From: Candidatus Bathyarchaeota archaeon
GTDB taxonomy: Archaea > Thermoproteota > Bathyarchaeia > Bathyarchaeales > Bathycorpusculaceae
DNA length: 64,000 nucleotides
Assembly (NCBI GenBank): GCA_963833575.1
Contig: CAWHXY010000004.1
Coordinates: 768,001-832,000, forward strand
Direction: 5' to 3'
Made by a program: the position numbers and the translations under genes. How positions within the stretch are numbered: the stretch's first letter is position 1; each line of letters starts with the position of its first letter. The notes below the pieces were generated by a model, which was given only the letters and a program-made list of their open reading frames with translations, was not told where the DNA came from and ran no database searches. This document shows positions 7,396 through 48,231 of this stretch, piece after piece.

Positions 7396-8370
7396 TTAAA
7401 CGACAAGATCGGCCATGTCTACACTACGTTCGTAAATTTGTCTAAGGAAAGAAACCGCTGCCAATAGCTGCGGCATCAAATCAATAGAAGAATCTTTTGC
7501 GACCCGCTCAATGTTTGAGTATGTGGCATCTATTCTTGTTCTTAGGTTACGTACATTTTCGGCTAATGAGATGTCTTTGGTTATAAAGGATTTTAGTGCC
7601 TGTTCATTGGCTCTACAGCAAGCTTCCTGTAAATCAAGCAGCAACTTTTGCAATTCGCTAGACATCTTCACGCCATTAAGCGCTATTGTTTTTGAAGCTA
7701 CCTGCACGCTTGCATCGCCTATTCCTTCAATCAAACTTGCGGCTAAACGATAATCCAAACATTCTATTGGAGTAATCCCTAGTTTCTCGCTTAAACGCGG
7801 ATTTTGAATAATTGTTCGAAGAATTCTTACCAGCAAAAAATACAATTTATTACTTTCAGAATCTCGCTCGATCACATTCTTAGCTAACTCTACGTCGCCA
7901 TAAACAAATGAGTTGGCAGCATCACGAGTCATTCCTGCCACAATGGCATATGTTCGATGCAGGATTTTTTCTGGTATAAATCCAGATGGCTGCTGCATCA
8001 AAGTTTGGAGGGAAATCTTTGAGCTGGTTTCCTCCACAATCTCTAAACCAACCAAAGAACTTGCAGTTGACTTAACTACTTTTCTTGCAGCGGAATCAAT
8101 CCTATCCTTTGCTTCAATATCGATAATGTCGTAGCCTAGAAGATAGCGTCCAACAATTTCTCGACCTAGGTAAGGACCTACAGTTAGAGAAGTAATTCGG
8201 GGCGGGGATTCAACATTATTAGAAGGGTCCACAATGAGTTTGCCATCACTAGTTACATCCAAGCTTACCAAATCGCCTTTTTTCAAACCACTCTTGTTAG
8301 CCCAATCTCTAGGTACGCAAACAAAAAAAGTCCCAGTTGGCGTTTGTTGAACTTTTCGTGATTCACTCAT
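7396..8370 (-). CDS. AbrB-PhoU phosphate-uptake regulator
   Basis: N-terminal RKVQ..TGTFFVCVPRDW AbrB motif, YLLGYD, GLEIVEE, then PhoU helices. Confidence 0.88.
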   Translation of the reverse strand: MSESRKVQQTPTGTFFVCVPRDWANKSGLKKGDLVSLDVTSDGKLIVDPSNNVESPPRITSLTVGPYLGREIVGRYLLGYDIIDIEAKDRIDSAARKVVKSTASSLVGLEIVEETSSKISLQTLMQQPSGFIPEKILHRTYAIVAGMTRDAANSFVYGDVELAKNVIERDSESNKLYFLLVRILRTIIQNPRLSEKLGITPIECLDYRLAASLIEGIGDASVQVASKTIALNGVKMSSELQKLLLDLQEACCRANEQALKSFITKDISLAENVRNLRTRIDATYSNIERVAKDSSIDLMPQLLAAVSFLRQIYERSVDMADLVV

Positions 8371-8626: not shown

Positions 8627-10201
8627 ATGAGCGCACAAGAAAAACTACAAAAAGCAATCGAGACGACAATCGCAGCGGGGTACCAACTAAATAGCGAAGC
8701 TTTTGAATTCTTAAGCCAAAACTCAGACACCAACGATCCAGTTGACATTATGAATTCTGCACTTCTAAAGCTCCAAGATCTTGAAGAAAAACCGTTTTTT
8801 ATTGACAGAGTTTTCTTGGAAAGCTTATCGCAACAGCTAACCGCTTCCGTTGTCGAAACACAAACAGAACCTCAGAATCAAAAAGTCGTAGATCCACCAT
8901 TTACGCAGCAATTAAATCAAGGCAAGATTGATGAAAGCACCATTTTTTATCCATATGCGAGAGACATAAAATCATGTCTCAATATCCTCGAAGATGCTAC
9001 AGGTAAACTTAGTTCAAATGGAACATTGGAAGAATACGTACAATATTTTCAAGACAGGTTCAGAAGAATAGAGCATTTACTAAGGCAAAGAATCGATGTT
9101 AGATCTGCAACCTCAATTCTTGAAGCACTAAAATCTCCTGCCAAAACAAAACTCAAAATAATTTGTATGATAACAGAAAAAAGGGACTCAAAAAACCAAA
9201 TGATATTGTCTGTTGAAGATCTGCAAGGAACTGCAACAGTATTGGTTCCTCAAAAAGCCCAAGACGATGTACGCAAAAAAGCCCTCCTTCTTTTGCCAGA
9301 TCAAGTAGTATGCTTGGCTCTGATAAAGACAAGAACTAATCTTTTCCTAGCTGAAGACATTATTTTTCCAGAAATAGGCAAAAGACCTCCACAGAGAGCT
9401 AACGAGCCTGTATATGCTGTCTTAACGTCAGATCTTCATATTGGAAGCAACAAGTTTGAAAAAGAAGCATTCAAACGATTCATTCTGTGGCTCAGGGGCA
9501 AATATGGAACCGACCAAATGAGAGAAATGGCTGGCAGGGTCAAGTATGTCTTAATTGCAGGTGACATTGTCGACGGAGTAGGAGTTTACCCCAACCAAGC
9601 AAAAGAATTATCAATCCGTGATGTTCACAAACAATACGATTTTGCCGCTAAATATTTACATAAGATCCCAGATTATATAGAAATAGTAATTTCTCCTGGC
9701 AACCATGATGCTTCACGCAAAGCGTTGCCTCAGCCTGCCATACCTGAAGGCTACTTAACTGGAATACAAGGCAAAAAGAACATTCACTCAGTTGGAAGCC
9801 CCTGCCTTTTGAGTTTACACGGCGTTGAAGTTTTAATGTATCATGGCAGAAGCTTAGATGATATAGTTGCGGTTATACCTGGAATGGACCATGCGCACCC
9901 AGAAAAATCAATGAAGCTGCTTATGCAAAGCCGCCATTTAGCACCAGTTTATGGTGGAAAAACTTTGCTTTCTCCAGAAAACCGCGATTACTTAGTCATT
10001 GATAGAGTACCTGATATTTTTCATGCCGGGCATATCCATGTATTAGGTTACCTCAATTATCGTGGAGTGCTGGTTGTAAATTCTGGAGGTTGGCAACAAC
10101 AGACAGATTACATGGAAAAATTAGGGTTGGTTCCAACGCCGGGAAAAGTTCCAGTGGTTAACCTCCAGACATTAGAGATAACGGTTCTTTCATTCCTCTA
10201 A
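8627..10201 (+). CDS. polB: DNA polymerase D small (exonuclease) subunit DP1
   Basis: SDLHIGS, AGDIVDGVGVYPNQ, PGNHD, HGRSLDD, RHLAP and HAGHIH motifs. Confidence 0.95.
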   Translation: MSAQEKLQKAIETTIAAGYQLNSEAFEFLSQNSDTNDPVDIMNSALLKLQDLEEKPFFIDRVFLESLSQQLTASVVETQTEPQNQKVVDPPFTQQLNQGKIDESTIFYPYARDIKSCLNILEDATGKLSSNGTLEEYVQYFQDRFRRIEHLLRQRIDVRSATSILEALKSPAKTKLKIICMITEKRDSKNQMILSVEDLQGTATVLVPQKAQDDVRKKALLLLPDQVVCLALIKTRTNLFLAEDIIFPEIGKRPPQRANEPVYAVLTSDLHIGSNKFEKEAFKRFILWLRGKYGTDQMREMAGRVKYVLIAGDIVDGVGVYPNQAKELSIRDVHKQYDFAAKYLHKIPDYIEIVISPGNHDASRKALPQPAIPEGYLTGIQGKKNIHSVGSPCLLSLHGVEVLMYHGRSLDDIVAVIPGMDHAHPEKSMKLLMQSRHLAPVYGGKTLLSPENRDYLVIDRVPDIFHAGHIHVLGYLNYRGVLVVNSGGWQQQTDYMEKLGLVPTPGKVPVVNLQTLEITVLSFL

Positions 10202-10217
10202 AGTATTTTCAACTAAA

Positions 10218-11459
10218 TCAACAAGTTTCAGTTTGAGTTTTACGTGAGGGTTGCGGAGAATAGCTGATTAAGCGGTTAAATCGGGTGTCATCGTTAAACA
10301 CATCCTTGATTAGGCTTCTCGAGATTTCAAGCCGAATTTTTTTAGTTCGGCCATATCGTCCCATGCTCACAACTTTTGCATTCACAAGCCCCATAGAATC
10401 TAGCTCGTTGATTAGAGTACCCAAACGACGTTGTGTCAGAAGCCCAGAGCCCATTTCTCCGCACAATTCGTTGTAAACATCGTATATTTCGCCTGTCGTA
10501 GCGCTTGGCTTGTTCAAATGATAAACACTGAGAAGGACTAGTTTAGAGTGCAAGGTCAAATTCTTAAGAGACTCGACAACGCGGTTATGCTCTATATGTT
10601 TCTCTGCCTGACGCACATGCTCCTCAGTAACCACTGAAGCACCTTGCCGTTCAGCAACTTCTCCAGCGACACGCAACAAATCCAAAGCTCGCCTCGCGTC
10701 GCCATGTTCTGCAGCGGCCAAAGCTGCGCAAATGCTTAACGCCGAATCAGACAAAACACCATCTTGAAAAGATAGCCTTGAACGTTCAAGAAGAATATTT
10801 CGAAGTTCACCCGCATCATACGGTCTGAAAACTAGTTCTTCTTCGCTAAGAGAACTAAAAACCCTAGGATCCAAAAATTCCTTCAAACGAAGGTCATTGG
10901 ATATGCCAATTATTGCAACTTTGCTTCTAGACAGAGTTTCATTTATTCTAGTTAACTCGTACATGAAGGCATCTCCTTTATCTTTAATCAAAGCGTCGAT
11001 TTCATCGAGAATTATTATGAAAATTATTCTGGAAGAATCTAATGCAGCGCGGAATCTATCAAAAACTTCACCCACAGATAAACCTGTAAAAGGTATAGCC
11101 ATCCCAATATTCTGACTTAGAGCTGCGAAAACTCGATATTCCGAACCCGTCATTCGACAGTTTATGTAACAAAATTTTACTTGAGAACCATATTCTTTTG
11201 CCTTAGATTCTAAGTGACTCAATACGTATTTGGTTACTGCAGTTTTACCTGTTCCAGTTTTTCCGTAAATAAAAATGTTGGAGCATCTTTCATCTTTTAA
11301 AACTGGCGCAACAGTTTGTCCCAATAATTTTATTTGTTCTTCCCTGTGCGGTAATTTTTCTGGTAGATAATCATGCCTTAATACTTCTCGATCTTTAAAA
11401 AGCCGAAGGCCATTAACGAAATTTTCGAATACATCATCTAATATGCTTGGATTGCCCAT
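10218..11459 (-). CDS. cdc6: Orc1/Cdc6 replication initiator
   Basis: YLPEKLPHRE, GKTGTGKT, LDEID, HGDARRALDLLR and C-terminal wH with GRYGRTK. Confidence 0.97.
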   Translation of the reverse strand: MGNPSILDDVFENFVNGLRLFKDREVLRHDYLPEKLPHREEQIKLLGQTVAPVLKDERCSNIFIYGKTGTGKTAVTKYVLSHLESKAKEYGSQVKFCYINCRMTGSEYRVFAALSQNIGMAIPFTGLSVGEVFDRFRAALDSSRIIFIIILDEIDALIKDKGDAFMYELTRINETLSRSKVAIIGISNDLRLKEFLDPRVFSSLSEEELVFRPYDAGELRNILLERSRLSFQDGVLSDSALSICAALAAAEHGDARRALDLLRVAGEVAERQGASVVTEEHVRQAEKHIEHNRVVESLKNLTLHSKLVLLSVYHLNKPSATTGEIYDVYNELCGEMGSGLLTQRRLGTLINELDSMGLVNAKVVSMGRYGRTKKIRLEISRSLIKDVFNDDTRFNRLISYSPQPSRKTQTETC

Positions 11460-11606
11460 TTTCCCATCGCCTTAACTTCAGAGGTAGAACCGTTATTTCG
11501 TGTGGAGAAGATAAAGGATGCAGTACAAAAAACTAAATTCATAGCACAATATTCTAAAAGGATATGAAAAAATCAGATTGAAACTAATTAAATAAGGTGT
11601 AAGACA

Positions 11607-11628
11607 CACCCCAAAGCTTCTACTGGAA
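11607..11628 (-). promoter_or_regulatory. ORB box 1
   Basis: Reverse complement TTCCAGTAGAAGCTTTGGGGTG matches the ORB consensus with G-string. Confidence 0.85.
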
Positions 11629-11792
11629 AAAATTTGTCAGCTAAAAGAAAACCCATTATATATAATATTTAGTAACTATACTCTGACTACTAAATAGAGA
11701 GTTTGTATATTAATAATTGTTATCCATTTTTTTAGATAAAGATTCTTTTAAAATTATTTCGAAGATTTCTAAGCTTTCTTTTGACCTCAAGG

Positions 11793-11815
11793 CTCGAGAG
11801 GAAACATAGGGGTGG
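11793..11815 (+). promoter_or_regulatory. ORB box 2
   Basis: CTCGAGAGGAAACATAGGGGTGG, inverted relative to ORB1 across the AT-rich spacer. Confidence 0.75.
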
Positions 11816-11818
11816 CTC

Positions 11819-12238
11819 TTCACACGTATTTTCCATTGTTAATCAGTAATAACTTGGATTTTTTACAACCATAAACGTTTCAAGATTTTCGAGCTTGCCG
11901 CGATTCATCTTGTCTCACTGCAATTTCTATTTTCTTACTTCACAAAATTGTGAATACATGTGAAATAGCATTAATTTTGTCGCTTAATCACTTTCCTTTG
12001 TTCAAAAATTACCTATTTCTTGTCAGTTAACTGTGAACGGCCCACCCCTCAGCTTCTACTGGAGAACTGAAACCAAACACGAACTTTAGTTATTTAGCTA
12101 TTCGGATTTGCTGTGAAGCTGGTTATACCGAATTGGATGTAAATAGTGATCATTTAGCTAAAATAGCTGATTTTTTGCTTCTTTCAATTTTCTTGTTTCA
12201 CCATAACAGCTATAAGTTGTGAAGTGTAAAGCTGTGAA
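11819..12238. repeat. GTGAA/TTCAC pentamer cluster
   Basis: Copies at 11819, 11939, 11950, 11960, 12033, 12113, 12197, 12219, 12234. Confidence 0.55.
12042..12065 (-). promoter_or_regulatory. ORB box 3
   Basis: Reverse complement TCTCCAGTAGAAGCTGAGGGGTGG, near-identical to ORB1. Confidence 0.85.
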
Positions 12239-12260
12239 CTGTCCTTAAGGTGTAGACCCG

Positions 12261-12692
12261 ATGCCAGCTCGTAAAATTCGTGTGGAGCTGTTCGATAGCG
12301 ATGGTAATCGATATACCATTGCTTTCGAGGGTCAAGTAACCCGTGATAAAGCTCTACGCCTCTTAGACCTTGTCGAGTTGTTGGGCGGTGCACCGAGCGA
12401 AGGTCCTACTGTAAATGCAGGAGCTTCTTTACCAAGTCGAATTCTTTCACGTTTTGAAAAAGTTCAGTTGGTAGTTCAGAAGAGTTTTCCGTTGATTTGG
12501 TTTTCTTCAAAAGATATCCAATCTGTCTATGAGCAAGAACTTAAGGAGCCTGTTAGCCTAAGTACCGTTTCAACTTATCTTTCAAGGATGGCAAGCAAGG
12601 GGATGCTTCTAAGAACAGGTGGATCAAATAATTTGAAGTACAAATCTGCCCCAAGTATTCCTCAAACAGCTTTGAAGCCACGCATTAAATAA
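12261..12692 (+). CDS. Uncharacterised protein: small N-terminal domain + C-terminal winged helix
   Basis: WFSSKDIQSVYEQELKEPVSLSTVSTYLSRMASKGMLLR has a wHTH pattern. Confidence 0.8.
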   Translation: MPARKIRVELFDSDGNRYTIAFEGQVTRDKALRLLDLVELLGGAPSEGPTVNAGASLPSRILSRFEKVQLVVQKSFPLIWFSSKDIQSVYEQELKEPVSLSTVSTYLSRMASKGMLLRTGGSNNLKYKSAPSIPQTALKPRIK

Positions 12693-12754
12693 TTAGAATC
12701 AACAAGGGCAAGTGCAAGTTGAAAGAAGTGAGCAACAATACCTTTTTTAAAGTT

Positions 12755-13483
12755 TTATTCAGTTTGGCTATTTTCGGGTTTTCTTAGTAGCTTTTCCATT
12801 TCTTTTTTGATACTGTAGCTGAACGGTATTTTACCCACTTCCCTCTCCAAATAACCTTCTTCATAAAGTTTCTTCATAAGTCTAGCCGTGTGTTCTCTGC
12901 TAAGATGTACTCTATCTTTGATTTCCGGAGCGGTCTTGGGGCCTTCTGAAGACAACATTTCCAGGACGGCAATTTCTGTGTCAGTTAGTGTTGCCATAGC
13001 TTTATCACGTCTAATAGGTATAACGGGCTCAACTCTAATTTCGGGAGCAATCGTGAGCTTTTGAATTTGCTCTTCGAAGCCTACGATTTTTTTCTTCAAG
13101 CTTTCCTGTGATGATTCAATATCTTTAATCTTTGATTCTAAACCTGTTAGCCCTGACAGAATGCTTATGTTGTTTTGCGACTCAGATGCAATAACGGTTA
13201 TTTGTTTTTCAAGAGGTAGCATATTCTTTTCTAATGCATCTACTTTTCTAAGGCTGGTATCGGCTTTAGCCAAGTTTCCCTCAATCTTGAACGCAATTAA
13301 ATTTAGTTTATCAGCTTCCCTTTTCAGCTCTCGGTTAAAACTAAGGACAATATCTTCAACAAACCCTTTAGCTTTTTCATACTCTTTTTGGGCTTTGCGT
13401 ATTTCCCTATAGTACTCGACTGAAGCTACGATAGTCGCACTCAGTAAAACGCCTAATAGTATGGTTACAAAGTCAGCCGTGAT
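12755..13483 (-). CDS. Membrane-anchored coiled-coil protein with C-terminal MarR-like winged helix (N-terminally extended, non-canonical start)
   Basis: Frame stays open 75 codons upstream of the TTG at 13273, to a stop at 13499-13501; the extension encodes TM FVTILLGVLLSATIVASV and a coiled coil; C-terminal LTDTEIAVLEML...LSREHTARLMKKLYEEGYL. Confidence 0.8.
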   Translation of the reverse strand: MTADFVTILLGVLLSATIVASVEYYREIRKAQKEYEKAKGFVEDIVLSFNRELKREADKLNLIAFKIEGNLAKADTSLRKVDALEKNMLPLEKQITVIASESQNNISILSGLTGLESKIKDIESSQESLKKKIVGFEEQIQKLTIAPEIRVEPVIPIRRDKAMATLTDTEIAVLEMLSSEGPKTAPEIKDRVHLSREHTARLMKKLYEEGYLEREVGKIPFSYSIKKEMEKLLRKPENSQTE

Positions 13484-13777
13484 ATTCCCCTCTGTGATCT
13501 AAACGTGATTAGCGGTGATTTTATCGGTCGCATCACAGATCACAGTTATCTATGGACTTTTTAAGGTTTTTGGTGATCTATTTTGATGTTAACTATGATA
13601 TCACATGTCACAGCTGATTTATTAACTTAGACGTTGACTCAATTCATTGAAGATATACCCTTAATTCAAGCTTATTTTGACATTTAACGCCTAATATTGA
13701 TTACTGTTATATGGACTTAATTACTCCTTTCCAGATTGTTATTAAATGCTAAATTATCACGTGATTTGTGACATCAC
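13479..13777. repeat. GTGAT/ATCAC pentamer array 1
   Basis: 11 copies (13479, 13494, 13505, 13515, 13532, 13539, 13573, 13600, 13756, 13761, 13773) plus GTCAC 13607 and GTGAC 13768. Confidence 0.75.
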
Positions 13778-14253
13778 AAAGCCTCGTCTGATGGACTGGA
13801 AAGCCGTTTTAGGCTTGTTTCGAGCTCTTGGCGTATGATTTCTATCACTTTTAGATGGTCTTTTAATTCTTCTTCCTTGTTGGGTGTTTCTTGATGCGCA
13901 TCAACATATTCGTGCAGTTTGTTGGCTATTTCGAGATAGGGATCAAGAGTTGTGCTATCAAATACACCCAAATATCCCAAAAGCAGTACTGTATAGATGG
14001 ATTTTATAACGTTTTCTTTTGACTGTTTTAGTGTCCTGTTAAAGGATCCGCGGCTTATTTTAGCCTTAGTTAGTCGTAAGTTAGCTTTTTCGTCGTATTT
14101 TAGCTGTTTGCCCGATATATTTTCCGCTAAAATATCAATAAGCAATGTTTCAAGTTGAATTTTTGTTAATTGGCTGTTTTTAGCCAGTATTTTGACAATG
14201 GGGTCACTTATAGCTCCATTTAGCCAGGCTTGGACGCCGTCTTTTAACTTCAA
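13774..14253 (-). CDS. Uncharacterised helical, HTH-like protein
   Basis: 159-aa ORF; LTKIQLETLL...ISRGSFNRTLKQS resembles an HTH recognition helix. Confidence 0.75.
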   Translation of the reverse strand: MKLKDGVQAWLNGAISDPIVKILAKNSQLTKIQLETLLIDILAENISGKQLKYDEKANLRLTKAKISRGSFNRTLKQSKENVIKSIYTVLLLGYLGVFDSTTLDPYLEIANKLHEYVDAHQETPNKEEELKDHLKVIEIIRQELETSLKRLSSPSDEAL

Positions 14254-14645
14254 GTCGATCGCTTCCTCGTATTTCGAAATGGATACACTTTTGTATACTG
14301 CCTCGGCTTTTAAGGCTTATCCAAGTAAGAATTTGATTATTATTAGAATATAACTTGGAGAATAGAGCAGTAAATGTAAAAATAGGGCTGATTACTCTGT
14401 TTTTCAAGATTTGAGTCAACAATTGGTACAGTTAACAGATAAACGGCAAGATTATTGAAGCGTTTGTCAACGATTAATAGTAAAATTATACCAAAAAATG
14501 CATTATTGCTTACATCTTCTTCCACAAAATTACATTTGCTCCTCGAATATGCACAAAATCAGTCCATACTCCCTTGAATCATGTTAACTCTCGAGCACAT
14601 ACTTTTATCTCAGCTGATCAGAAGCACGGAGATTGAAGAATGCAT

Positions 14646-14737
14646 GTGACGTCACCAATAATAATGAAATAACCGTGATCTTAACTTAAAATCCTCGATA
14701 TCACAGCTTTGTGATGAGACTGTGATGCCTTTGTGAT
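14646..14737. repeat. GTGAT/ATCAC array 2 with exact 11-bp period
   Basis: ATCAC 14700, GTGAT 14711, 14722, 14733; also GTGAT 14675 and palindrome GTGACGTCAC 14646-14655. Confidence 0.75.
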
Positions 14738-14760
14738 TTTGAAATTTCATGAGTTAATTG

Positions 14761-15594
14761 TCAGAGACGCACTGAGTACTCTTTAAGTTGATCAAAAAGT
14801 TCAGGCCGCAAATCCCTCAGAGTAGGAATAAATGTTTCTGCTGTTCTTAAGTCGCTGTAATCTAATTCACAAATAACAAAATCTTCTTTGTCATACTTTG
14901 CCTTGGCAAGAACATCTCCAGATGGGCTAACCAATCTACTTCCCCCCCAAAATTGCAAACCATCTTGAACGCCTGCAAGGTTAACGTAGGCTAAATAGGC
15001 TGTATTTTCCAACGCTCTAGCGCATGTTAGTGTTTCAAAGTAGCTTTTACGTACTGCTGGAGATGCCGATATGCAAATGATTAATTGTGCCCCTTTCAAG
15101 CGTGTAAGCCTGACCACTTCGGGAAAGAAAATATCATAGCAAATGCATAATCCAATTGGACCTAAATCTGTTTGAAACGTCTCTGCCTGATAGCCTGGAC
15201 GGAAATACCTTTTTTCTTCAAAAACACTATGAGTTGGTAAATACATTTTTCGATATTTACCAATTAAACCATCGGGACCAATGAGAACTGCGGTATTGAA
15301 AATTGTTGCTTGCGTTTTCTCACTTAACTCTGGCATCCCAAAAATGATGTGCATCTTCGACTTCTTGGCTAACGTCTCTACTTTTTTCACCGTTGGTCCA
15401 GGAATGGTTTCCGCTAACTCGTAAAGTTGATCTCTGACAACGTACCCAGACAATGAAAGCTCTGGAAAGATAGCTAGATCCGCACCCTGCTCTTTTGCCC
15501 TTAATGTTAATTTTTCTATTTTCTGAAGATTAGCTTCTTTGTTTTCTCGTTTACTGCTTATTTGGGCGAGGGCAAGTTTGAATTTAGCTTTCAT
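14761..15594 (-). CDS. Carbon-nitrogen hydrolase (nitrilase family)
   Basis: FPEL, YRKMYL and ICYD give the Glu-Lys-Cys triad. Confidence 0.92.
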   Translation of the reverse strand: MKAKFKLALAQISSKRENKEANLQKIEKLTLRAKEQGADLAIFPELSLSGYVVRDQLYELAETIPGPTVKKVETLAKKSKMHIIFGMPELSEKTQATIFNTAVLIGPDGLIGKYRKMYLPTHSVFEEKRYFRPGYQAETFQTDLGPIGLCICYDIFFPEVVRLTRLKGAQLIICISASPAVRKSYFETLTCARALENTAYLAYVNLAGVQDGLQFWGGSRLVSPSGDVLAKAKYDKEDFVICELDYSDLRTAETFIPTLRDLRPELFDQLKEYSVRL

Positions 15595-46878: not shown

Positions 46879-48231
46879 ATGGCGCTTGACAAATTAAGTT
46901 CTTCTTTAACAGACGCTATAAAAAAGCTGTTTAAAGCTGGCGTAATAGACGAGAACACAGTGAAAGAACTTGTCCGCGATATACAAAGAGCGCTTCTCCA
47001 ATCAGACGTTAATGTCCAACTTGTTCTTGAAATATCAAAGCGCATAGAAGAACGTGCGCTAAAAGAAAAAGTTCCTCCAGGCATTTCAAGGCGCGAGCAT
47101 GTTATAAAGGTCGTTTACGAAGAACTAACACGGTTTGTAGGTGATAAGCCAGTTCCACTAAAAATGGAACCAGGCAAAAGAAAAGTTGTAATGCTTGTCG
47201 GAATCCAAGGCTCGGGCAAAACCACTCACGCTGCTAAACTGGCACGATATTTTCAGAAGCGAGGATTAAAACCCGCACTAATTGCAGCTGATACTTTCCG
47301 TCCAGGTGCTTATGCTCAGCTTCAGCAATTGGCAACAAGAATAAACATGCCCATTTACGGCGACGTCAAAGCCAAAGATCCAGTTAAAGTAGCTAAAGAG
47401 GGATTAAAACAGTTTCCAGACAAGGACTTAATAATCATAGACACCGCAGGCAGGCACAAAGAAGAAAAAGACCTCATCAAAGAAATGAAAGATCTTGAAA
47501 AACACATCAAGCCCGACGAAGTCATTATGGTTATTGACGGCACCATCGGACAACAAGCCCTCATCCAAGCCAAAACATTCCATGAAGCAACACCCATCGG
47601 CGCCATAATCGTGACAAAACTTGACGGTTCTTCACGTGGAGGAGGCGCACTCTCCGCCGTTGCAGCAACAGGCGCACCAATCAAATTTATAGGCACAGGC
47701 GAAAAAATCGAAGACATTGAACCTTTCATACCCTCGCGTTTTGTCGGTCGACTCTTAGGCATGGGCGACTTAGAGACGCTTTTAGAAAAGGTACATGACG
47801 CAGAAATTAAAGTTCCAGAGAAAAAAGCCAAAGAAATACTCAGCGGAAACTTCACATTAACCGACATGTATGAGCAATTCCAAGCAGTAAAAAAAATGGG
47901 TCCTTTCGGCAAAGTCCTAAAGATGTTACCTGGAATGTCGGCTAATAATTTGCCTGATGAAATGGTAAATAACGCAGAAGGCCGTTTGGACAAGTGGGCC
48001 GTTATAATTCAATCTATGACTCCTAAAGAAAAGGAAAACCCAAAGATATTGAACTCTTCTAGGGCCAAACGTATTGCCCGCGGCTCAGGAACAACTGAAA
48101 AGGAAGTCAAAGATCTTCTAAAACAATACATTATGATGCGTAAAATGCTAAAGCAGTTCAAACGCAAAAAGAAGCTGCCTTTCGGGCTCGGCGGCGGAAA
48201 AGGAATGCCAGCGAACTTTCCAGTAGGCTAA
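46879..48231 (+). CDS. srp54: Signal recognition particle protein SRP54
   Basis: GIQGSGKTT, DTAGRH, TKLDG and M domain IIQSMT...RIARGSG. Confidence 0.97.
   Translation: MALDKLSSSLTDAIKKLFKAGVIDENTVKELVRDIQRALLQSDVNVQLVLEISKRIEERALKEKVPPGISRREHVIKVVYEELTRFVGDKPVPLKMEPGKRKVVMLVGIQGSGKTTHAAKLARYFQKRGLKPALIAADTFRPGAYAQLQQLATRINMPIYGDVKAKDPVKVAKEGLKQFPDKDLIIIDTAGRHKEEKDLIKEMKDLEKHIKPDEVIMVIDGTIGQQALIQAKTFHEATPIGAIIVTKLDGSSRGGGALSAVAATGAPIKFIGTGEKIEDIEPFIPSRFVGRLLGMGDLETLLEKVHDAEIKVPEKKAKEILSGNFTLTDMYEQFQAVKKMGPFGKVLKMLPGMSANNLPDEMVNNAEGRLDKWAVIIQSMTPKEKENPKILNSSRAKRIARGSGTTEKEVKDLLKQYIMMRKMLKQFKRKKKLPFGLGGGKGMPANFPVG

Follow-up and report, generated by a model that had tools for sequence, protein, structure and literature searches.

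We analysed a 64,000-nucleotide stretch of the genome of a Candidatus Bathyarchaeota archaeon (GCA_963833575.1; hereafter the window), in which three genes, named A, B and C here, lie beside the gene for an origin-type Orc1/Cdc6 initiator. The window is part of contig C4 of a 2.75 Mb assembly of 8 contigs (94% complete). Our comparisons point to three separable pairs of a protein and its DNA sites, with B most likely binding DNA site-specifically from a membrane anchor, on a site field that is centromere-like and self-regulating. In the reading we favour, B probably docks on arrays of the pentamer GTGAY, represses its own gene and holds the DNA at the membrane. Gene A goes with the origin-type Cdc6, and gene C appears to act with a palindrome of its own.

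Gene B and its phased GTGAY arrays

In the list of open reading frames (ORFs), gene B occupies 12755-13273 on the minus strand with a TTG start, and its frame stays open to 13498. The upstream extension of 70-75 codons encodes a hydrophobic helix. No ATG, GTG or TTG lies ahead of this helix in the frame up to 13498, so public gene calls drop the membrane helix and contain B in a truncated 172-aa form alone. From a related-locus search by alignment, the best 80 of 514 loci (83-95% identical) were kept; wider sampling came from genome searches. Over 70 codons, the differences of 80 relatives to the window were 0.255, 0.154 and 0.537 at codon positions 1, 2 and 3, respectively, which shows that the extension is coding and under constraint. 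The aligned start codon was ATC in 60 of 81 rows, with G-rich sequences resembling a Shine-Dalgarno (SD) element ahead of it. In the window, an SD-like GAGGGG lies 5 nt upstream of the ATC (13481-13498, minus strand), and an ATCAC site begins with this very ATC. An in-frame canonical start upstream of the helix was present in 16 of 80 relatives and absent from the other 64, and in other families ordinary start codons precede the helix. Gene B thus appears to start at a non-canonical ATC in this genus. If that start is the ATC at 13483, B (12755-13483, minus strand) is a protein of 242 aa with a membrane helix, a coiled coil and a C-terminal winged helix of the MarR/TrmB type.

A hydrophobic N-terminal window of 18 residues (mean Kyte-Doolittle value of at least 1.85) was found in 43 of 46 B orthologues, and at most 9-16 residues precede the membrane helix in this genus. 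At the other end of the protein, Pfam models for MarR (PF01047, 32.1 bits against a cut-off of 24.6) and PF13463 (28.3 bits against 22.2) both matched residues 171-220. The canonical MarR build, a soluble protein of ~150 aa with flanking dimerisation helices, was not seen in B: the match spans the core of the winged helix-turn-helix (wHTH) alone (profile positions 1-50 of 59), and the rest of B is membrane helix and coiled coil. The middle of the protein matched tropomyosin-type coiled coils, and a search of the B profile against sequences of the Protein Data Bank (PDB) returned coiled coils plus weak MarR/MecI matches alone. The 19 Pfam families listed for B at E <= 0.1 included no MerR-type model. 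A two-copy structure prediction of residues 28-247 scored 0.13, against a mark of 0.42, and gave no verdict. The recognition-helix stretch, REHTARLMKKL, was invariant or nearly so across 16 Bathyarchaeia rows; in the orthologue from Nitrosopumilaceae one of its residues is changed, and the GTGAY motif is kept there as well. The tether-like architecture of B, which a preliminary description of this DNA had read as a transmembrane helix followed by a long coiled coil and a winged helix, is real.

The GTGAY/RTCAC sites associated with B number 20 and form three clusters (13479-13777 and 14646-14737) that span 1.26 kb. The proximal array (13479-13611) lays 9 sites over the start codon, 5' untranslated region (5'UTR) and promoter of B and is the densest 150 bp of the genome. 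It consists, in order, of four direct GTGAT, ATCAC-N2-ATCAC, the conserved ctatggactttttaaggttt, GTGAT and ATCAC-N2-GTCAC. The element ctatggactttttaaggttt (13550-13569), which we read as the TATA region of B, sits between the site groups and is conserved like the motif columns. A second cluster of four overlapping sites, ATCAC-GTGAT-tt-GTGAC-ATCAC, lies on the stop codon of C (13756-13777) and is conserved at 0.9 or more. The distal array (14646-14737) has 7 sites located 393-484 bp upstream of C, abuts the stop codon of a nitrilase-family gene, forms the second densest 150 bp and is kept in relatives.

Spacings were tallied over 100 clusters from the window and 45 relatives. Among 272 spacings between same-orientation neighbours, 97 were of 10-11 bp, 50 of 7 bp and 12 of 21 bp. 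The palindrome GTGAYRTCAC was present 51 times in this set, and the site consensus was YGTGAYNT. Genome-wide, GTGAT/ATCAC has a background of 0.199 per 150 bp, and the two richest 150-bp windows of the whole genome both fell at the locus (13451-13600 with 8 sites and 14584-14733 with 5). The window 13695-13844, with 4 sites, ties for third with three places elsewhere (C7:595371, C4:111756 and C4:177458), where the sites are irregular and mostly coding. Of the three genomic places with the palindrome GTGAYRTCAC, two belong to the locus and the third (C8:118627) is inside a 714-codon frame. The composite GTGAY-N0-2-GTGAYRTCAC has one genomic occurrence, on the stop codon of C, and 4 of the 8 genomic matches to GTGAT-N5-6-GTGAT are at the locus. 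A genome-wide scan for GTGAY composites and clusters found no regulon and no target of B beyond its own locus. An intergenic run of five same-orientation RTCAC, 10-16 bp apart, was noted at C4:215389-215445, ~565 kb from the locus; its flanks mostly do not fit YGTGAYNT.

The arrays are conserved well beyond the source genome. At genus level, motif columns were 0.82 identical to the window compared to 0.49 for the spacers (80 sequences). All 20 order-level loci carry 4-10 GTGAT/ATCAC in the spacer between B and C, and a further 6-11 separate C from the nitrilase gene in the 16 of them where that gene was matched. In other families the equivalent of the distal array lies inside the coding sequence of nadE or of an aminotransferase gene upstream of C, and in some families hypF, situated between C and B, carries a GTGAY cluster. 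We subjected 17 open frames with at least 5 sites in 150 bp (one of them the antisense of another, and one B's own frame) to 500 synonymous-codon shuffles each. The observed maximum exceeded expectation in 17 of 17 frames and was reached by 0-13 of the 500 shuffles. A frame of ~775 aa between C and B, identified as hypF (hydrogenase maturation) in L117, the one locus scanned against Pfam, has its cluster at the same C-terminal place in four loci (L122:10194-12521, L135:4968-7313, L149:1620-3971 and L154:1712-4027), all of them far above the codon-shuffle expectation. In one example of this frame, 10 sites were observed against a shuffle mean of 3.4, a count reached by 0 of 500 shuffles. It follows that the DNA sites are selected for themselves and that their place relative to C counts for more than local promoters.

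These data bear on the simplest alternative, that the arrays arose by chance, reflect base composition or are left over from a mobile element. The locus has 8 sites in 150 bp against a background of 0.2, the sites are conserved one by one in the genus, the order, the class and a second class, and no transposase or integrase was found among the ORFs of the stretch. Density, conservation and the excess over codon shuffles together refute this explanation, to which we give a negligible probability.

Different partners for A, B and C

We searched whole genomes with profiles in a sample of 151 genomes of the class. Gene C was found in 130, B in 117 and A in 91, and the gene that is missing differs by family. 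The three genes are therefore separable and do not form one three-part machine, contrary to the single three-gene system that had first been proposed.

The arrays follow B. We compared loci by the highest number of GTGAY sites in any 150 bp up to 3 kb from C. This number was 3-15 (median 8) at 45 loci that have B; at 15 B-less loci, in which A abuts C directly, it was 1-3 apart from a single 6. The whole-genome B profile search gave no match in the families f14 (0/3), f23 (0/3) and f26 (0/7), one weak match in f28 (1/4) and none in one f32 genome; f14, f23, f26 and f28 keep C and A. Could another protein, whether C, A, Cdc6 or an unlinked factor, bind the GTGAY arrays? C, a predicted DNA binder, has arrays on both sides, and GTGAA, the pentamer found near A, is one base apart from GTGAT. 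However, C and A persist in 14 of the 15 B-less loci, which are those without arrays. C has a distinct palindromic motif, GTGAA sites persist without B, and the near-invariance of REHTARLMKKL in B goes along with the retention of the GTGAY motif. We consider a binder other than B very unlikely.

Gene A (12261-12692, plus strand) encodes 143 aa, with a small N-terminal domain followed by a BlaI/MecI-like winged helix. Its winged-helix match was weak (Penicillinase_R, E 0.0026, below the family cut-off), and a protein-atlas lead pointed to PF03965 in 11-18% of cluster members. Profiles of A and C searched against PDB sequences returned nothing under E 0.05. The distribution of A was compared with that of the origin-type Cdc6, counted at E 1e-80 or better, which was found in 99 of the 151 class genomes. 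At family level, A was detected solely where the origin-type Cdc6 was also found. In family f24, A and the origin-type Cdc6 are each present in 1 of 35 genomes, which is the same genome, and B is present in 32 of 35; in f21 (0/4), f18 (0/1) and f34 (0/1) neither A nor the origin-type Cdc6 was found. Five A-less genomes without an adjacent origin-type Cdc6 have only Cdc6 paralogues that are 30-33% identical and lie elsewhere in the genome. The reverse case, an origin-type Cdc6 without A, occurs in f17 (Cdc6 9/10, A 3/10), f31 (2/2 versus 0/2) and f25. Collectively, these results show that it is A and not B whose distribution follows the origin-type Cdc6 and the origin defined by origin recognition boxes (ORBs).

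That origin has the make-up of an archaeal Cdc6-adjacent ORB origin, with an Orc1/Cdc6 gene and ORB elements flanking an A+T-rich stretch. The origin-type initiator gene ('Cdc6-1'; 10218-11459, minus strand) has Cdc6_lid, Cdc6_C and AAA domains. At its start lies a conserved non-coding block (11476-11535), in which most columns are 0.8-0.9 or more identical to the window (77 sequences) and which contains a core at ~11496-11509, tttcgtgtggagaa, that is ORB-like as read from its sequence. A 34-nt direct repeat (family D1) supplies ORB-like repeat 1 (11597-11630, plus strand), kept in order-level relatives, and ORB-like repeat 3 (12033-12066, plus strand), which is 79% identical to the first copy and has GTGAA at its 5' end. 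An inverted ORB-like element, ctcgagaggaaacataggggtg, at ~11793-11814 is kept in relatives and reads as minus-strand. Between repeat 1 and the inverted element, an A+T-rich stretch (11655-11745) with the conserved blocks 'tatactctga' and tatattaataatt is a candidate unwinding element; the 1-kb bin of lowest G+C in the window is 11001-12000 (0.331). The ORB-like pattern CCC-N4-6-TTYYRNTGGA has 4 matches genome-wide, 2 of them at this locus. The genome has 3 Cdc6/Orc1 paralogues, the other two being 29-30% identical to the origin-type copy; they lie at C6:249800-250915 and C4:279-1331, and the ORB-like pattern was found beside neither. Cumulative GC skew along contig C4 showed no turning point at the locus and so gave no independent support for an origin. 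The preliminary description had set the three genes directly beside an ORB-defined origin, and the two ORB repeats with their inverted copy bear this out.

GTGAA sites occur in between the ORBs and on both sides of the TATA-like element of A. A conserved block of TTCAC-N6-GTGAA-N5-GTGAA lies at 11939-11964, and TTCAC-N17-GTGAA-N10-GTGAA at 12197-12238 surrounds the TATA-like 'ctataag' of A, for which it is a candidate operator with a putative promoter role. The genome maximum of TGTGAA/TTCACA per 300 bp is 7, at window 11934-12233, compared to 4 for the runner-up. In the spacer between Cdc6 and A, GTGAA columns were 0.94 identical to the window versus 0.61 for other columns (77 sequences). The GTGAA sites remain in lineages where B was not found, and the arrangement GTGAA-N10-12-CCCC...TTCCACTGGA is also present there. 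The GTGAA and GTGAT sites form separate sets that differ in their phyletic behaviour. The two pentamers had initially been taken together, as densely packed repeats often 10-11 bp apart. Their density and spacing held up, as did their conservation and a density peak at this locus, the genome's top two GTGAT windows and top TGTGAA window all lying here; their unity did not.

Since GTGAA is interleaved with the ORBs and conserved, and A is found only in families with the origin-type Cdc6, the module might control the initiation of replication, with A (possibly B) modulating Cdc6 binding, origin firing or post-firing sequestration. A precedent is UBP at the ucm motif of Sulfolobus origins, a non-initiator protein on an essential origin motif (PMC12141716). 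According to that source, UBP, the ucm binder of oriC1, is a nucleoid protein with hundreds of binding sites, and its gene lies away from the origin. Compared by description, the two cases share a short conserved non-ORB motif between ORBs (here GTGAA) and a small, basic, DNA-binding non-initiator protein as the candidate binder (here A). Unlike UBP, A is encoded beside the origin, and its clearest GTGAA pair flanks its own TATA-like element, thereby resembling an ordinary operator pair. The occurrence of origin-type Cdc6 without A in f17 and f31 and the position of B's arrays outside the ORB region also speak against initiation control, which we regard as distinctly unlikely.

Gene C (13774-14253, minus strand) encodes 159 aa and belongs to a family without a Pfam model. 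The family comprises 311 clusters at E 0.001 or better, and the 70 members scanned share no Pfam family. An AF2 model built from a 70-sequence alignment reached a pLDDT of 90.6, compared to 52 for a 16-sequence model. Foldseek found nothing for this model in the PDB at E 0.001 or better. With VIA-align, residues 26-100 of C aligned to the LuxR-type helix-turn-helix (HTH) of 7vim_A (Z 6.2, rmsd 2.8, 64 residues), and a wide search was dominated by generic matches to the C-terminal helical hairpin. A protein-atlas lead to Sigma70_r4 was weak (score 0.78). The model hints that C is helical, with a part resembling a LuxR/sigma-4-type HTH and a C-terminal helical hairpin. Because C has no Pfam family, its label as an HTH protein derives from this fold hint. 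All three genes had been described as DNA-binding-type; this stands for B, with its MarR wHTH above cut-off, and is less secure for A, with its match below cut-off, and for C.

A palindrome, GGATACACTTTTGTATAC (14281-14298), lies 28 bp upstream of the C start, overlaps a TATA-like element and is a candidate operator of C. It has the form ATACA-N4-TGTAT (pattern ATAC-N5-7-GTAT) and was found beside the C start in 52 of 60 loci, that is, 38 of 45 with B and 14 of 15 without B. Genome-wide, 3 strict matches were counted, about the number estimated by chance, and the copy at the locus is the only one conserved. The 340 bp between this palindrome and the distal array (14300-14640) hold no listed ORF that is conserved in relatives. 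They contain short blocks shared in the genus, such as cagttaacagataaacgg and acaaaaaatgca, and the matching space is taken up in other families by a small gene along with one for an aminotransferase.

Tethering, local control and known systems

We infer which protein binds which site, and likewise the repression, the tethering and the purpose of the tether. In the mechanism we favour, oligomers of B would bind the helically phased YGTGAYNT sites. On the proximal cluster, B would cover its own TATA region, transcription start region, 5'UTR and ATC codon and thus repress itself, and the outer clusters would bracket gene C. Since B is predicted to sit in the membrane, the bound patch of DNA would be held there, in the source genome 1.4-3.1 kb from the ORB origin. 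A would belong with the origin-type Cdc6 and the ORB origin through the GTGAA sites, and C would act with the palindrome ahead of its own start.

Several observations weigh against parts of this mechanism. In this genus, the membrane helix of B requires a non-canonical ATC start that gene callers do not predict, and a clear hydrophobic N-terminus is missing in two of the 46 orthologues. On a quick Cdc6 tree, the B-less rows need 2 changes, with 1 possible, so that the joint loss of B and arrays counts as few events. Two loci depart from the pattern: L134 has a divergent B and only 3 sites, and L130 has no detected B and 6 sites. GTGAA has an observed/expected ratio of 1.05 genome-wide and is too short to show specificity by itself; one GTGAA is part of the ORB repeat unit, so some GTGAA sites may belong to Cdc6 and not to A. 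The Z of 6.2 for the HTH of C is within the chance range for helical models.

A more far-reaching explanation is that B and its arrays constitute a true origin-to-membrane anchor or centromere-like device, an archaeal counterpart of RacA, RocS and RicO that is selected for origin positioning. B joins a membrane anchor, a coiled coil and a DNA-binding domain, its sites are private to one patch near the ORBs, no regulon was found elsewhere in the genome, and the block stays beside Cdc6 and the PolD genes DP1 and DP2 across two classes. parS and ram sites lie inside unrelated coding sequences, with which the arrays upheld inside such sequences can be compared. In addition, RicO and RocS provide a precedent for the anchoring of origins by a coiled-coil DNA binder with a membrane element (bioRxiv 10.64898/2026.03.06.710092). 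The genomic distribution tells against this explanation. The set of B, C and arrays is also kept at loci of f24, f21, f18 and f34 that lack A and an adjacent origin-type Cdc6 and have few or no ORB cores; the sites are therefore near a replication origin in the source genome and not in those families. In the complete genome G159, the sole Cdc6 match is ~343 kb from B and C. Conversely, the B-less families and the B-less f32 genome keep the origin. This persistence without an adjacent origin and the absence of B elsewhere weaken a role in origin anchoring or segregation and argue against an obligatory origin function. We consider such a dedicated anchor unlikely.

Judged by that preprint (bioRxiv 10.64898/2026.03.06.710092), RacA of Bacillus subtilis, RocS of Streptococcus pneumoniae and RicO of Staphylococcus aureus are nonetheless B's nearest functional analogues, each with a winged helix, a coiled coil and a membrane end. 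Like them, B has origin-proximal sites in the source genome, a central coiled coil and a membrane-binding end, although its helix is transmembrane and not amphipathic. Unlike them, B has a MarR/TrmB-type winged helix at the C-terminus (theirs is MerR-type and N-terminal) and is anchored by an N-terminal transmembrane helix (theirs by a C-terminal amphipathic helix or DivIVA). The amphipathic helix of RocS can, by that account, be replaced by unrelated transmembrane domains. The 9 ricS sites reported there extend over ~700 kb and the 25 ram sites over ~600 kb, whereas the ~20 sites of B are confined to 1.26 kb about the B gene, a compactness that also counts against the dedicated anchor. Archaeal B showed no detected sequence relationship to the three proteins. 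Given the different fold class, domain order, anchor type and site distribution, B is not a member of the RacA/RocS/RicO family.

The layout of the arrays also recalls partition systems. In the type II partition system ParR/parC of plasmid R1, phased short direct repeats lie in groups flanking the core promoter of the binder gene. Similarly, the direct repeats of B are about one helical turn apart and fall into two groups that flank the binder's own promoter, so that a single protein-DNA complex could both autoregulate and serve as a handle. B differs from ParR in being a winged-helix protein, not a ribbon-helix-helix protein, in its chromosomal locus and in its membrane anchor. The archaeal partition systems SegAB and AspA-ParB-ParA have a site-specific binder encoded beside its own sites, as does archaeal B. 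In contrast to those systems, compared by description, the window contains no ParA-type ATPase, and B has a membrane anchor and a coiled coil. No SegA ATPase gene lies beside the B gene in the window, as had been noted initially, and no CbiA/ParA-family match was above cut-off there, with one sub-threshold match at 47209-47535. Nor does the window hold any partner NTPase (ParM, ParA or TubZ) for B, which is a further point against the dedicated anchor.

Alternatively, B could be a plain local regulator, a membrane-sequestered repressor of itself and of C that is set free or inactivated through some signal, for example proteolysis, the state of the membrane or a division event, with the tethering having no role of its own. 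The proximal array wraps the TATA-like block, start region and start codon of B, and autoregulation thereby accounts for much of the pattern. C, with the outer arrays on either side, retains an operator of its own and also occurs where B is lacking. The three genes can be separated, and the module is dispensable in several families. Membrane-bound winged-helix transcription factors of the ToxR/CadC type, which have a cytoplasmic wHTH, a single helix and an external sensor domain, offer a comparison. As in these, B would be a winged-helix binder fixed by one membrane helix and bound at multiple sites, the DNA thereby being tethered. B differs in its reversed topology and long coiled coil, and the 9-16 residues ahead of its helix leave no external sensor domain. 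A field of ~20 sites, some of them inside neighbouring housekeeping coding sequences, goes far beyond a simple operator. The number of sites, their upkeep inside foreign coding sequence and the absence of any other target found beyond the locus argue against a simple operator. Purely local control is a real possibility that we nevertheless stop short of calling probable.

Gene neighbourhood, distribution and significance of the block

The gene order around A, B and C is conserved. On one side of the block, PolD DP1 (8627-10201, plus strand; from the ORF list and a domain match) adjoins the cdc6 gene. On the far side lie the nitrilase-family gene (14761-15594, minus strand), nadE, elf1, a GGGP-synthase gene and PolD DP2, all named from their translations. 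Cdc6, A, B and C occur together in 78 of 80 genus-level loci and in 17 of 20 order-level loci, the remaining three of which end at contig edges, and 14 of the 20 class-level C loci include Cdc6. Together with the Nitrosopumilaceae loci described below, this synteny with cdc6 and DP1 is what a block linked to these genes was expected to show in relatives. DP1 is adjoined in the window by a gene with an AbrB/MazE-like N-terminus and PhoU domains (7396-8370), which keeps its DP1-side place in most order-level and several class-level loci.

In 7 of 20 order-level relatives, a pair of genes for a protein of 330-340 aa (no Pfam match) and a HerA-like DUF87 ATPase of 515-527 aa is located between A and B (L017:6979-9514, and also in L025 and L027-L031). 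One carrier belongs to the genus of the source, and in one of the seven carrier loci the pair is broken up and partly masked. A tblastn search of the source genome found neither member of the pair, and the sole DUF87 match above cut-off in that genome (C7:306046) is away from the locus. The gaps of 2.3-3.3 kb in class-level loci were considered as places of a NurA/HerA-like pair, which was rejected, as tblastn gave nothing at E < 0.27. Three such gaps scanned with Pfam contained hypF (a 778-aa frame), a pyruvate-phosphate-dikinase-like gene or hydrolases, and frames sized like hypF fill five other class-level gaps.

An Rfam scan of 11300-14900 (E <= 1) found no known RNA family; its only hit, to an lncRNA model from mammals, was due to chance (12.2 bits, with the gathering score at 70). 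A search of sequencing runs listed no RNA dataset; the best DNA dataset contained 0.40 of the words and the others at most 0.08. Genome-wide avoidance of single pentamers was also considered and rejected, GTGAT having an observed/expected ratio of 0.97. The most under-represented pentamer of the genome is CCAGG/CCTGG (observed/expected 0.67), a shortage for which a restriction-modification system with this target may be responsible.

Beyond the class, the C profile matched 42 of 87 genomes from other classes of the phylum. In 20 such out-of-class loci, B was detected in 18 and Cdc6 in 11. The Nitrosopumilaceae-type family f37, whose genomes are mostly ~1.6 Mb and complete, has the order DP1-Cdc6-A-B-C-GGGPS-DP2 in 7 of 7 loci, one of which ends at the record edge. 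The top GTGAY cluster of these loci is at the B-C junction or the 3' end of C in five and within B in two. In 2 of 3 f37 genomes, the locus is the only place with three ATCAC-N4-9-ATCAC matches within 300 bp. Two proteins of one f37 locus are identical to records of Nitrosarchaeum koreense. A review passage (PMC4010727), which cites Pelve et al. 2013, gives a single mapped origin for Nitrosopumilus maritimus. In the literature on Bathyarchaeia and Nitrosopumilus origins, archaeal segregation and membrane-anchored factors, supplementary data being outside its scope, we found no description of these genes or arrays. The extension of the block to Nitrosopumilaceae, the assignment of A to Cdc6 and of B to the arrays with C standing alone, the selection on coding-embedded arrays and the apparent ATC start are new to the present analysis.

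This distribution invites a broader proposal, namely that the block is an ancient chromosome-organising element common to Bathyarchaeia and the ammonia-oxidising Nitrososphaeria, in which B on its phased field would pin the origin-proximal chromosome to the membrane, A would mark the ORB origin and C would be held inside the complex. We regard this proposal as doubtful. The occurrence of the block in Nitrosopumilaceae nevertheless means that it is present in cultured ammonia oxidisers, in which experiments are feasible. The division of what had looked like one origin module into an A part tied to Cdc6 and the origin, a B part tied to the arrays and a solitary C shows which part is suited to the test of which role.

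To our knowledge, there is no account of the mechanism by which chromosomes are placed or separated in archaea outside Sulfolobus and the haloarchaea, and we know of no archaeal protein that ties DNA to the membrane. The locus offers a concrete candidate, a predicted membrane-anchored binder with a private, phased and long-conserved site field. Even on the modest reading it would be unusual, as a self-regulating membrane-bound repressor that brackets a second regulator, has arrays inside unrelated genes and, in this genus, apparently starts at a non-canonical ATC within a site of its own. If the proposed pinning of the chromosome is true, B would be the first archaeal chromosome-to-membrane anchor, and one that works without a ParA-type motor.

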